A DNA stretch of 21,120 nucleotides from a virus (lineage: Duplodnaviria > Heunggongvirae > Uroviricota > Caudoviricetes), in IMG/VR virus record IMGVR_UViG_2630968336_000003, one strand, 5' to 3'. A program made the translations under genes and the position numbers. Below, in pieces: positions 3,309 through 16,348 of this stretch; within the stretch, counting starts at the first letter, position 1; each line of letters starts with the position of its first letter. The notes beneath the pieces were generated by a model. It was not told the DNA's origin. It searched no databases and saw only the letters and a list, made by a program, of their open reading frames with translations.

Positions 3309-3884
3309 CTACGGCAGTGCTGGCCATTCAATATCCTGTGCAGTTGACGTATCAACACGGTTCAGCAATACCCGATACTTTTTCCATGCTTCCAGCAACG
3401 AGATTTCTTCCTCCGTTGCAATTTCCAGATCTGCAGCATCCTGAAGCGGCGCAATATGCTCACTGGCTACCTGCATCAGGTTGTTTTTTGTTTCTTCCGC
3501 CTCCCGGATCCGGAACAGTTTTTCTGCTTCCGTATCCTTCACCCAGGCTGTGCCGTTCCACTTCTGAAACTCCCCTTCCGGCGATAACCAGGTAACATTT
3601 TCCGGTAACGGACCGAGTTCAGAAATAAATAACGCGTCGCCGGAAGCCACGTCATAAACCGTTTTACCCCGATGATCTTCAACGAGATGCCACGATGACT
3701 CATCACTGTTGAAAACAGCCACGAAGCCAGCCGGAATATCTGGCGGTGCAATATCGGTACTGTTTGCTGGCAGACCTGTATGAGGCGGAATATATGCATC
3801 ACCTTCACCAATAAATTCATTAGTTCCGGCCAGCAGATTATAAATTTTTATGGTCCGTGGTTGTTCACTCATTCTGAATGCCAT
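3309..3884 (-). CDS. tfaQ: tail fibre assembly protein
   Basis: 191-aa ORF immediately downstream of and abutting the stf fragment (stf stop overlaps tfa start at 3884); typical Tfa size and position. Confidence 0.85.
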
Positions 3885-4846
3885 TATGCAAGCCTCACAA
3901 TATAGTTAAATGCGATGTTTTTGACGGTGTTTTCCGCGTTACCAGCAGCGTTAACGGTGATGGTGTGTCCATGTGAACCAATCGCAACGGAGTGCGTATG
4001 AGCACCAATACCGACAGTATGTGCATGCGCGCCTGCGCTTGCAGCAGTGCCGGACAGCGAGTGGGTATGAGCACCATCTGATGATGTCTTCCCTGCATTA
4101 CGAGTCTGGCCACTACCGCTTGTTGTGCTCATAATCCCCGCGCTTAGATTTGAAATCGCGGTATAACCATTAGGGAAAATGCTCGTGTTCGTGCCACCAA
4201 ATGCACCGGAACTCTTGTGTTGGTGCGCACCGGCACTATTTGCGGTCCCGCTAATACTATGGGTATGCGCCCCGGTGTTATTCGTGGATTTGGTTCCGTA
4301 ATCAAACGACGATGTGGTTTCCGTCCCCAAATCCGTACTGGATGCGCTGGCGCTGTGGGTGTGCGATTTAATGCCGTCCTGTTCCTGAGATAATACGGCC
4401 CGACCACTGGCGGGCTTGCCCTTAATCGTCCAGCCACGCATATCAGGGATCACGCCTGACGGATAAGCAACTGCAAGTTTCGGGTATGCAGATTTGTCAA
4501 AAGTCTGCCCCTGCATCAGGGCATAACCAGACGGAACGGTATCTGATGGCCACGGGATTGGTGCACCGACTGGATAAAACTCTGCAGGAGGATGAGCCGA
4601 GGTGTAAAGCTGCGCCCACGGCGACCAGTTTGCGTCGGTCGTATCCCGTCGTGAACGAATAAATGCCGGAGCATGAGCACCGCTTGTACCACTCCAGCCG
4701 ATGAGTAACTCACCTTCGCCAACGGCTGTCATCCCTTTCAGGTGAATGATATTTCCATACGCTGTTGGATATCCGTTGTTATACACCTCGTATAACTCAA
4801 GACCTGCTGCCCCCTGCGTATTGTCTGTCAGCGCGGTTATATTCAC
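3884..4846 (-). CDS. stfQ: side tail fibre protein, C-terminal fragment starting at a deletion junction (likely non-functional)
   Basis: 320-aa ORF with Gly/Ser/Thr-rich sequence and repeated GAHTHS-type motifs. The reading frame opens with GTG inside sequence that is the 3' end of the Nu1 homologue, so there is no native tail-fibre N-terminus. Confidence 0.8.
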
Positions 4847-5366
4847 TCAGCAACCCCGGTATCAGTTCATCCAGCGCGGCTGCTTTGTTCATGGCTTTGA
4901 TGATATCCCGTTTCAGGAAATCAACATGTCGGTTTTCCAGTTCCGGAAAACGCCGCTGCACCGACAGGGGGATCCCGTCGAGAATACTGGCAATTTCACC
5001 TGCGATCCGCGACAGCACGAAAGTACAGAATGCGGTTTCCACCACTTCAGCGGAGTCTCTGGCATTTTTCAGCTCCTGTGCGTCGGCCTGCGCACGCGTA
5101 AGTCGATGGCGTTCGTACTCAATAGTCCCTGGCTGGAGATCTGTCTCGCTGGCCTGCCGCAGTTCTTCAACTTCCCGGCGCAGCTTTTCGTTCTCAATTT
5201 CAGCATCCCTTTCGGCATACCATCTTATAACGGCGGCAGAGTCATAAAGCACCTCATTACCCTTGCCACCGCCTCGCAGAACGGGCATTCCCTGTTCCTG
5301 CCAGTTCTGAATGGTACGGATACTCGCACCGAAAATGTCAGCCAGCTGCTTTTTGTTGACTTCCAT
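4797..5366 (-). CDS. nohA: terminase small subunit, phage lambda Nu1 homologue
   Basis: 189 aa; N-terminus [29 protein letters not shown] and most of the protein match lambda Nu1 as I remember it. The C-terminal ~13 residues ([13 protein letters not shown]) diverge where lambda has IEQSG, coinciding with the junction to stfQ. Confidence 0.95.
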
Positions 5367-5379
5367 TGTTCATTCCACG

Positions 5380-5585
5380 GCCAAAAACAGAGAAAGGAAA
5401 CGACAGAGGCCCAAAAGCTCGTTTTCAGCACCTGTCGTTTCCTTTCTTTTCAGGGGGTATTTTAAATAAAAACATTAAGTTACGACGAAGAAGAACGGAA
5501 ATGCCTTAAACCGGAAAATTTTCATAAATAGCGAAAACCCGCGAGGTCGCCGCCCCGTAACCTGTCGGATCACCGGAAAGGACCC
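5380..5585 (-). other. lambda-type cohesive end site (cosB-cosN-cosQ region)
   Basis: Minus strand of 5544..5555 reads GGGCGGCGACCT, the lambda 12-nt cohesive end. Flanks match the lambda left end (CTCGCGGGTTTTCGCTATTTATGAAAATTTTCCGG...) and right end (...CCGGTGATCCGACAGGTTACG) from memory; the Nu1 start lies about 190 nt downstream as in lambda. Confidence 0.85.
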
Positions 5586-5754
5586 GTAAAGTGATAATGA
5601 TTATCATCTACATATCACAACGTGCGTGGAGGCCATCAAACCACGTCAAATAATCAATTATGACGCAGGTATCGTATTAATTGATCTGCATCAACTTAAC
5701 GTAAAAACAACTTCAGACAATACAAATCAGCGACACTGAATACGGGGCAACCTC

Positions 5755-5988
5755 ATGTCAACGAAGAACAGAACCCGCAGAACAACAACCCGCAACATCC
5801 GCTTTCCTAACCAAATGATTGAACAAATTAACATCGCTCTTGAGCAAAAAGGGTCCGGGAATTTCTCAGCCTGGGTCATTGAAGCCTGCCGCCGGAGACT
5901 GTGCTCAGAAAAAAGAGTTTCTTCTGAAGCAAACAAAGAAAAGAGTGACATTACTGAATTGCTCAGAAAACAGGTCAGACCAGATTGA
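5755..5988 (+). CDS. ynfO: small basic protein of unknown function (77 aa)
   Basis: ORF with a basic N-terminus (TKNRTRRTTTRNIRFPNQ) in the position of Qin ynfO between cos and ydfO. Confidence 0.65.
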   Translation: MSTKNRTRRTTTRNIRFPNQMIEQINIALEQKGSGNFSAWVIEACRRRLCSEKRVSSEANKEKSDITELLRKQVRPD

Positions 5989-8028: not shown

Positions 8029-9052
<1,024 letters not shown>

Positions 9053-16120: not shown

Positions 16121-16348
16121 TTAAGAATCTACCCTATGAATGGATATGCACTCAACCGAATCGATCTTGGTTTCAATCTTTTTTATCGGGATCAGGCTTC
16201 TTTTTAGGTAACTTCGGGGGCTTAACTTGCTGATGACTTTGCGTTCGGCGCGTAAGCCAGGGATGGTCAGCTTTAGGTTTAACATAGTATTTTGAGCGTA
16301 AATCAATACGGGCATTATCCACTCGTTCATGGACACTCTTTTCATCAT
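16121..16348 (-). pseudogene. intK: short ORF at the position of the Qin integrase remnant (intK)
   Basis: 75-aa ORF whose start overlaps the ydfX stop in an ATGA arrangement. Too short for an integrase, and I recognise no catalytic motifs; the assignment is from the known Qin gene order only. Confidence 0.35.

Follow-up and report, generated by a model that had tools for sequence, protein, structure and literature searches.

The window, the whole 21,120-nucleotide stretch of DNA analyzed here (IMG/VR record IMGVR_UViG_2630968336_000003), is identical (100%) to the Qin prophage of Escherichia coli K-12, and the site studied is the already-annotated nohA/cos remnant of this defective prophage. 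The nohA gene is annotated in K-12 genomes and named as a Nu1 homolog, and the status of Qin as a defective lambdoid prophage has long been known. Work by Espion et al. in 1983 is said to concern lambda qin111 and is cited here without being used as evidence. All features described below lie on the minus strand.

Homology to lambda (NC_001416) begins, by megablast, at window position 5917 with a 362-bp homolog of the lambda right end (5556..5917, corresponding to lambda 48141-48502). In the alignment, the 303 bp adjoining cosN match lambda 48200-48502 at 100% identity, including cosQ. The latter is the 7-bp heptamer GGGTCCT (5579..5585, lambda 48473-48479), a subsite for packaging termination (PMC4669245) that is placed upstream of cosN at the lambda spacing and is the same in lambda, Qin, DLP12, PhiR42_1, PhiR70_1, and Kati. 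The 12-nt cohesive-end sequence of cosN, GGGCGGCGACCT (5544..5555), equals lambda bp 1-12, and the identity to lambda extends over bp 1-53. The I2 spacer or bend segment (5506..5538, lambda bp 18-50; definition from PMC4856287) is likewise identical, so that the distance between cosN and cosB is preserved. A first-pass annotation made from the letters alone had placed a lambda right end, the cohesive end at 5544..5555, and a cosB-like leader here, and alignment to lambda confirmed all three. A chance match was dismissed because identity remains at 98 to 100% over more than 1 kb.

Beyond cosN, lambda bp 1-719 align to window positions 5555..4838, and the complex cosB layout R3-I1-R2-R1 is present at the correct cosN-R3 spacing provided by I2. 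The R3 binding site for the small terminase subunit (TerS) lies at 5491..5506 (lambda bp 50-65; limits from PMC9026076) and carries a single change, G54A, at window position 5502. It is followed by I1, the interval between R3 and R2 with the IHF site (5447..5490), in which only A73G and T102C were found, both near its edges and both shared with PhiR42_1. R2, AGAAAGGAAACGAC (5433..5446, lambda bp 110-123), and R1, GTCGTTTCCTTTCT (5391..5404, lambda bp 153-166), are identical to lambda and were recovered as an inverted pair, with R2 inverted relative to R3 and R1. Altogether, the 190-bp leader differs from lambda at seven positions (G54A, A73G, T102C, G134A, a deletion of G138, T145G, and T176G), and the aligned coding part adds a few further differences.

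These changes raise the question of whether G54A, the 1-bp deletion at bp 138, or another leader change abolishes recognition by terminase and renders the site dead. G54 does fall within the nominal limits of R3 and within the CGTTTCC motif common to the three lambda R sequences. However, the bases of R3 contacted by TerS are bp 55-63, defects are known for positions 56, 58, and 59 (PMC9026076), and this contacted core is unaltered in Qin. Positions 53 and 54 are also variable in such phages and prophages of the lambdoid type, with C53T in PhiR70_1, NR2550, and DLP12, and the deletion at bp 138 lies between R2 and R1, the latter having been called accessory (PMC4669245). Moreover, PhiR42_1, which was taken as viable because its GenBank record describes an isolated phage and names the host used to propagate it, is identical to Qin over bp 1-200 and thus carries all seven changes, and its Nu1 is identical to residues 1-176 of NohA. 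Mutations disabling cosN or cosB, which had been proposed as evidence against a usable site, were accordingly looked for and none was found at a critical base: all seven leader differences fall outside the bases reported as critical. Scoring of the elements against lambda and DLP12, also suggested in the first-pass annotation, found cosQ, cosN, R2, and R1 identical in all. A dead site is therefore very unlikely, and the Qin cos looks functional and, as far as its sequence can tell, competent for a terminase of lambda specificity. We infer this specificity from the identity to lambda of both the Nu1 recognition helix and R2 and R1.

The leader is followed by nohA (4797..5366), which encodes 189 amino acids comprising residues 1-176 of the TerS protein Nu1 and 13 out-of-frame residues derived from a tail fiber gene. 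NohA matches lambda Nu1 at 173 of these 176 residues and the Pfam family Phage_Nu1 (PF07471, E = 2.7e-101) over residues 1-164, which bears out the near-full-length Nu1 homolog seen initially. Residues 1-47 are identical to lambda, as are the helix-turn-helix and wing. Judged from these comparisons, NohA is a bona fide Nu1 and not an Rpp protein of phage-inducible chromosomal islands (PICIs). Its C-terminal end is not intact, as the last five residues of Nu1 (IEQSG) are missing and the 13 unrelated residues stand in their place. The domain binding the large terminase subunit (TerL) is located in the C-terminal part of TerS, and loss of binding has been reported only for a 30-residue truncation. 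The cognate large subunit does not follow downstream, where gene A is reduced to its first three codons. A promoter scan around cos and nohA predicted no sigma-70-like promoter, and expression of nohA therefore probably depends on late read-through transcription. NohA was also considered as a known defense protein, and this assignment was rejected after PADLOC returned only a weak match to mad1 at the level of the N-terminal helix-turn-helix.

The match to lambda and intact relatives runs as far as ...GAGTGAATATA at window position 4838 (lambda bp 719), and the next base enters codon 708 of a side tail fiber gene of 1,023 amino acids. The two sides share a 2-bp TA microhomology at the junction (4838..4839). 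The end of Nu1 homology had previously been put at about 4840, with a direct run into the C-terminal part of the tail fiber gene, in good agreement with this position. The resulting open reading frame, stfQ' (3884..4846, 320 amino acids), is listed in RefSeq as an N-terminally truncated pseudogene and opens with a GTG at 4846..4844. This codon had been described as made partly from Nu1 codons, which is correct and can be refined: it is the native start codon (lambda bp 711) of the terminase gene A, whose reading frame overlaps with the end of Nu1. Hence, stfQ' is an in-frame fusion of A(1-3) to Stf(708-1023). The next surviving gene downstream is the tail fiber assembly gene tfaQ (3309..3884). 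The large terminase subunit, portal, capsid, tail, and N terminus of the tail fiber are absent from the K-12 annotation and present in an intact relative, and the loss of the whole morphogenetic module at a deletion junction, as proposed from the sequence, was thus borne out.

Comparison of the junction with intact relatives, a check that had likewise been suggested, defined the deletion end points. The Qin-type prophage of NR2550 has the same attachment site and flanks as Qin (ydfJ', ynfT, ydfK, pinQ, tfaQ ... relBE, dicB), is 99.5% identical over 1,263 bp up to the junction, and has the full module from A to stf. PhiR42_1 is 99.1% identical over the same 1,263 bp, with the cos leader and Nu1 residues 1-176 identical. 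Both keep 21 kb, from A to the N terminus of the tail fiber, that K-12 Qin does not have. Relative to NR2550, 21,116 bp are missing, from Nu1 codon 177 through tail fiber codon 707. This definition of the deletion at the level of single bases, with its TA microhomology and the in-frame joining to the gene A start codon, and the identity of the Qin cos to that of a live relative are what the present analysis adds.

Among known systems, the closest likeness is to lambda itself, with which Qin shares cosQ, cosN, I2, R2, R1, the layout and spacing of R3-I1-R2-R1, and the DNA-binding domain of TerS. It differs from lambda by the seven leader substitutions and indels, one of them in outer R3, by the lost C-terminal residues of Nu1, and by the absence of gpA, portal, head, and tail, and the site is found in a nonexcising chromosomal remnant. 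The cos-nohD site of DLP12 is similar in that a lambda-type cos and a Nu1 homolog lie beside a deletion by which the terminase and tail fiber regions became joined. In contrast to Qin, DLP12 retains the full Nu1 of 181 amino acids and the first 309 nt of A, is joined to tfa rather than stf, shows C53T where Qin has G54A, and is located on the opposite strand 1.05 Mb away. At this sister site, lambda recombinants cluster beside cos, and the DLP12 nu1 (nohD) works in lambda (PMC3945230).

The comparison indicates that a lambda-like prophage integrated at ydfJ and that a single illegitimate deletion, mediated by the TA microhomology, removed the DNA between the end of Nu1 and tail fiber codon 707, leaving cosQ-cosN-cosB together with NohA, a Nu1 altered at its C terminus. 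Since a deposited phage isolate shows no difference from Qin in bp 1-200 or in residues 1-176 of NohA, the event looks recent enough that an intact cos needs no selection to account for it. The Qin nohA/cos is thus probably a passive, well-preserved relic of prophage decay rather than a helper-dependent satellite.

The satellite reading had been raised in the first-pass annotation: the terminase of a superinfecting lambdoid phage would recognize the Qin cos and package Qin in helper capsids in the manner of cos-type PICIs or SaPIs. The cos is intact in sequence, Qin has no annotated virion structural genes, and a dimer of the 20.46-kb prophage (size from PMC3105296), about 41 kb in length, could in principle be accommodated in a lambda head, given the packaging limits of lambda. 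The Gram-negative cos-type PICIs (EcCICFT073 type, cos-rpp) are also chromosomal, have no structural genes, and carry a cosQ and a cosN that differ very little from their counterparts in lambda-like helpers (PMC9026076). Unlike Qin, however, these elements excise, replicate, and encode an Rpp that heterodimerizes with the TerS of the helper, and they have no phage-type cosB R sequences (PMC9026076). Qin has the phage's own cosB with the lambda R sequences and, next to cos, a true Nu1 (98% identical) in place of any Rpp-type protein. For Qin in general, no excision was detected and its intQ is inactive (PMC3105296); for lambda infection in particular, DLP12, Qin, and Rac do not excise as judged by PCR (PMC3945230). 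From dicC to flxA, the K-12 annotation lists no replication genes, with ydfX given as a pseudogene, and part of the dicC-ydfW region kept by NR2550 is deleted in K-12 Qin.

The orientation of cos is equally unfavorable to mobilization of Qin. Packaging from this site runs in the direction from nohA to ydfJ and would reach the end of the prophage within about 4 kb. Of the 20 kb of Qin, about 16 are situated upstream of the point where packaging starts and would be left behind. The need for two cos sites had been rightly flagged: Qin in situ has a single one, and the only other cos in K-12, that of DLP12, is convergent and 1.05 Mb distant. Mobilization as a cos-type satellite therefore fails on excision, intQ, replication genes, Rpp, and cos orientation, and we consider it exceedingly improbable.

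As a relic, the Qin cos may still remain a substrate for a terminase of lambda specificity, and only when a lambda-type phage supplies gpA. The terminase would nick the chromosomal cosN, stay bound on the nohA side, and translocate one way through nohA, stfQ', tfaQ, and pinQ toward ydfJ, mar, lsr, and hipBA. Termination would fail because there is no downstream cos in the same orientation, with rare one-ended, docL-like particles as the most to be expected. Qin itself would not be mobilized. The exposed end on the cosQ side would be recombinogenic, making it easier for the infecting phage to pick up late-region DNA from Qin. A study by Kotani et al. (1992, NAR 20:3357) reportedly deals with terminase cutting of the E. 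coli chromosome and was not used as evidence here.

A stronger version of this scheme resembles lateral transduction, with a helper terminase starting at the Qin cos and delivering about 44 kb of chromosome at a biologically meaningful frequency. A headful of 48.5 kb from this site would include about 44 kb of adjacent chromosome, from ydfJ to hipBA, with marRAB and lsr. The cos appears competent by its sequence, and packaging would proceed in one direction, into host DNA, from a start in situ at a prophage-borne packaging site that docL formation and lateral transduction have in common. Lambda docL particles, said to be classical and reportedly described by Sternberg and Weisberg, contain DNA that runs from cos into bacterial sequence and ends there, and they are defective and one-ended. 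Against such a route, termination of the lambda type needs a downstream cosQ-cosN (PMC4669245), and no cos in the same orientation is present within 1 Mb. Furthermore, the phages for which lateral transduction has been established are of the pac (headful) type, and the literature states that it is not carried out by cos phages (PMC12829572). A literature search gave no work that ties lateral transduction to cos and cryptic prophages. Transfer at meaningful frequency thus appears very unlikely.

Deletions that retain cos and Nu1 and lose the genes from A through the tail have arisen independently in E. coli at least six times. Four of them alter only the last 5 to 12 codons of Nu1, and independent breakpoints are knotted at lambda bp 697-719. 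The part of this knot at lambda 697-700 (ATACC-GG-GGTTG) was considered as a quasi-site for the Pin invertase and rejected as unsupported. A search of the window for AAACCNNGGTTT, which we take to be the Pin crossover core, yielded one match at chance level and none near pinQ or tfaQ, and the junction partners instead share simple microhomologies of 2 to 4 bp.

A purely neutral account does not predict recurrent deletions that keep Nu1, and these leave some room for selection. One form that selection could take, by loose analogy to Rpp, is that an orphan TerS such as NohA interferes with, or acts as a decoy for, an incoming lambda-type terminase. This would fit the intact DNA-binding and dimerization domain of NohA with its altered extreme C terminus, the uninterrupted Nu1 frame left by each of these deletions while A is destroyed, the confinement of four of them to the part of TerS in which the TerL-binding domain resides, and the weak mad1 match. 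Yet K-12 carries both nohA and nohD and is a normal plating host for lambda, and no promoter is predicted near nohA. The nohD of DLP12 supports growth of lambda once recombined into the phage (PMC3945230), and the phenotype of a ΔnohA mutant in a boric acid screen was marginal and uncomplemented (PMC11502571). In addition, clonality within the K-12 and B lineages inflates the deletion counts, and the orphan frames are too similar to those of live phages for a test of purifying selection. An interfering TerS kept by selection is accordingly highly improbable.

As a broader idea, orphan modules of cos and TerS, such as nohA/cos of Qin and nohD/cos of DLP12, might be retained recurrently in E. 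coli for their action on incoming lambda-type phages, either as chromosomal terminase targets or through an altered TerS, which we regard as very improbable. If it were true, an orphan cos would be a terminase target seeding one-way packaging or recombinational capture of adjacent DNA, and a C-terminally altered TerS could perturb the packaging of a helper. The knot at bp 697-719 would then be a selected boundary, keeping Nu1 and losing gpA, rather than a product of chance.

As it stands, the analysis mostly confirms textbook anatomy of the E. coli K-12 genome. A lambda-type cos core is found in 85% of complete E. coli genomes and carries no annotation in the rows examined. If such orphan chromosomal sites are used, breaks made by terminase or one-ended packaging could constitute an overlooked route of phage-prophage recombination or of host gene transfer.

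The 1.8 kb surrounding nohA and cos in the window show 100% identity to E. coli K-12 chromosomes, and RefSeq annotates the matching K-12 region as the Qin cryptic prophage. The window begins at the end of the host gene ydfJ, which the prophage interrupts, and the Qin genes come in the order pinQ, tfaQ, a pseudogene for a truncated "phage tail protein", nohA (labelled "DNA-packaging protein"), ynfO, ydfO, gnsB and cspI, with the lysis genes, ydfT (Q), relBE and dicA beyond cspI. The nohA/cos feature is a known, annotated remnant of K-12 Qin; cos itself carries no annotated feature in the RefSeq rows examined. In K-12 ER3413 (NZ_CP009789.1, 1615730-1618868), an IS4-family (ISVsa5-like) insertion splits the 1.8-kb region into two pieces, and the remnant is therefore still eroding in laboratory lineages.

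The first-pass annotation had described a lambda-type cos and a Nu1 homologue at a deletion of the morphogenetic genes, and alignments to lambda and to the Qin-type prophage of strain NR2550 confirmed all three elements. Homology to lambda starts at window 5917. The 303 bp aligned upstream of cosN are identical to lambda 48200-48502 and contain the cosQ heptamer GGGTCCT (5585..5579, minus strand), the cohesive end GGGCGGCGACCT (5555..5544, minus strand) is that of lambda cosN, and window 5555..4838 aligns with lambda bp 1-719. The 5' part of ynfO is also common to the lambda right end (100% identity over 145 bp aligned): its first 54 codons (DUF3950, YlcI/YnfO family) lie on the plus strand at window 5755-5917, the complement of lambda 48303-48141. 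No gene is annotated at this stretch in the lambda reference record, and an unannotated or truncated ynfO-like ORF may adjoin cos in lambda.

As a benchmark for cos intactness, we used the literature of the Feiss laboratory. Initiation requires cosN and cosB (R3, the IHF site I1, R2 and R1), and termination requires cosQ and cosN (PMC4669245); I2 (bp 18-50) is critical, as is the exact spacing of cosN from cosB (PMC4856287). The 190-bp leader in the window has seven differences from lambda (G54A, A73G, T102C, G134A, loss of G138, T145G and T176G), and none falls in cosQ, cosN or I2. R2 and R1 are identical to lambda and form the expected inverted pair. R3 covers bp 50-65, of which bp 55-63 are contacted by TerS, and deleterious changes are known at bp 56, 58 and 59 (PMC9026076); the sole change in the R3 of the window, G54A, falls outside the bases that TerS contacts. 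Positions 53 and 54 are naturally variable, with C53T occurring in PhiR70_1, NR2550 and DLP12. Furthermore, bp 1-200 of the window cos are identical, including all seven lambda differences, to those of Escherichia phage PhiR42_1, deposited as a complete phage genome for which a propagation host is given. Mutations abolishing terminase binding had been named beforehand as evidence against packaging recognition; no known disabling mutation was found, so this objection does not arise. By every sequence criterion available, the Qin cos is intact and qualifies as a competent lambda-specificity cos.

The NohA ORF (4797..5366, minus strand; 189 amino acids) matches Pfam Phage_Nu1 with an E value of 2.7e-101. 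It shares 173 of 176 residues with lambda Nu1 (differences K48R, A75T and L132I), is identical to PhiR42_1 Nu1 over residues 1-176, and continues with 13 unrelated residues. Its DNA-binding domain is intact, its extreme C terminus is altered, and its TerL partner is absent. No sigma-70-like promoter was predicted near nohA, which is consistent with reliance on late read-through transcription. The sole reported ΔnohA phenotype is marginal and was obtained without complementation. The N-terminal helix-turn-helix (HTH; residues 1-55, window 5202-5366) weakly matches PADLOC mad1 of the MADS defence system (E = 1e-11), probably reflecting generic HTH similarity.

Comparison with an intact relative, as the first-pass annotation had proposed, defined the deletion. 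The NR2550 prophage (NZ_AP040168.1) is apparently complete and occupies the same chromosomal site as K-12 Qin, at ydfJ, with the same flanks (ydfJ', ynfT, ydfK, pinQ and tfaQ on one side; ynfO, ydfO, cspI, relBE and dicB on the other). Its morphogenetic module comprises A, W, portal, protease, D, E, FI, FII, Z, U, V, G, T, H, M, L, K, I, J, lom and a 1023-amino-acid side tail fibre. Up to the junction, NR2550 and the window are 99.5% identical. At the breakpoint, the nohA side of NR2550 reads ...GAGTGAATATA followed by TCGAAC, its tail-fibre side reads ...GGTCGGGTA followed by ACCGCGCTG, and the window reads ...GAGTGAATATAACCGCGCTG, which places the crossover at window 4839-4838, in a TA microhomology of 2 bp. 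The breakpoints on the NR2550 record (2385242 in the tail fibre, 2406359 in nohA) give exactly 21,116 bp missing: the loss begins at Nu1 codon 177, takes in A to lom and ends after codon 707 of stf. The tail-fibre ORF had been described as opening with a GTG made partly from Nu1 codons; the GTG at window 4846 (lambda bp 711) proved to be the native start codon of the terminase gene A. The stfQ' ORF, which RefSeq classes as a truncated pseudogene, results from an in-frame fusion at window 4838-4846 (minus strand), A(1-3)::Stf(708-1023), and keeps the translation start of A. No more than 371 of the 5,426 complete E. coli genomes carry the exact junction, and the sampled carriers are either K-12 strains or genomes of K-12 size, among them BW25113, J53 and DSM 498. 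The Qin loss was a recent single deletion. A second deletion, affecting the replication region, also belongs to the decay of K-12 Qin.

At least six independent deletions across E. coli lineages have kept cos and an uninterrupted Nu1 ORF and lost A through the tail genes, with distal ends in J, stf, tfa or pin and junction microhomologies of 2 to 4 bp. DLP12 in K-12 (L008:14059-15322) shares the design of Qin: nohD is complete there, and the initial 309 nt of A are then joined to tfa (breakpoint close to lambda bp 1018). Among the other genomes sampled, the junction joins lambda bp 697 to a tail-fibre gene in EC195, bp 699 to J in E. coli B (TACC microhomology at lambda 16139-16142), bp 699 to the 5' part of pin in TW10690, and about bp 957 to stf in ZH48; others lie at about bp 913, 1758, 1856 and 2268. 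The ZH48 fusion, a 348-amino-acid ORF right after full-length nohD (L011:2593-3639), joins gpA residues 1-82 in frame to about 240 C-terminal residues of the side tail fibre, and its annotation is that of an intact "phage tail protein".

Four independent left breakpoints (697, 699, 699 and 719) occupy a 23-bp stretch, lambda bp 697-719 (window 4838-4860), where Nu1 ends and the A ribosome-binding region lies; three of them lie in other loci (L009:2581, L010:2579 and L012:2581). Equal-sized probes over the 5,426 genomes, counting places as copies rather than events, gave 5,586 (Nu1 5'), 5,988 (Nu1 3'), 5,218 (A 5'), 4,732 (A middle) and 4,539 (A 3') places. The biggest step, a drop of 770 places, lies in the 40 bp separating the Nu1 3' and A 5' probes, although about 371 of these are clonal K-12 Qin and the rest is inflated by lineages such as E. 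coli B. The cluster may indicate a hotspot or a boundary under selection, with counts confounded by clonal lineages. A Pin invertase quasi-site was tested as its cause and found unsupported.

The first-pass annotation had also speculated that Qin could in principle be recognised by the terminase of a superinfecting lambdoid phage in the manner of cos-type satellites, a satellite reading we reject since most of the defining tests failed. No Qin excision was detected among about 10^10 cells, whether or not mitomycin C was added, and the Qin integrase is inactive (PMC3105296); by PCR, DLP12, Qin and Rac do not excise in lambda infection (PMC3945230). No replication genes are annotated in K-12 Qin. 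Gram-negative cos-type PICIs carry cosQ and cosN without phage-type R sequences and encode Rpp, which heterodimerises with helper TerS, whereas Qin lacks Rpp, its cosB being the phage's own and its TerS a true Nu1. Only two cos-core matches exist in K-12, the Qin cos (1.636 Mb, nohA on the minus strand) and the DLP12 cos (0.580 Mb, nohD on the plus strand); being convergent and separated by 1.05 Mb, they form no initiation-termination pair. From the Qin cos, the packaging path runs through nohA, stfQ', tfaQ, pinQ and ydfK and exits the prophage after about 4 kb, the remaining roughly 16 kb of Qin being upstream of the packaging start. Read from K-12 record 1,586,000-1,635,990, host DNA stretching from ydfJ' past hipBA would make up about 90% of a 48.5-kb headful; it includes marRAB, eamA, the lsr operon, hipBA and dgcZ. 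Cos phages are stated not to perform lateral transduction (PMC12829572).

We propose that the Qin cos would stay silent until a lambda-specificity phage brings terminase, which would then nick chromosomal cosN and keep hold of the nohA-side end. Translocation would start without means of termination, and the cosQ-side free end may turn recombinogenic. For DLP12, nu1 works in lambda, and about half of the sequenced lambda-DLP12 recombinant junctions adjoin cos (PMC3945230); by analogy, these recombinants fit the proposed route of terminase nicking and a recombinogenic end at the Qin cos.

The NR2550 prophage and PhiR42_1 provide references to reconstruct the decay of K-12 Qin. The lambda-type cos core (window 5436-5655) occurs at 8,760 places, a median of 2 per genome, in 4,592 of the 5,426 complete E. 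coli genomes, with no annotated feature beneath it in any row examined, and the modest question raised is whether orphan cos-TerS modules are retained above chance in E. coli.
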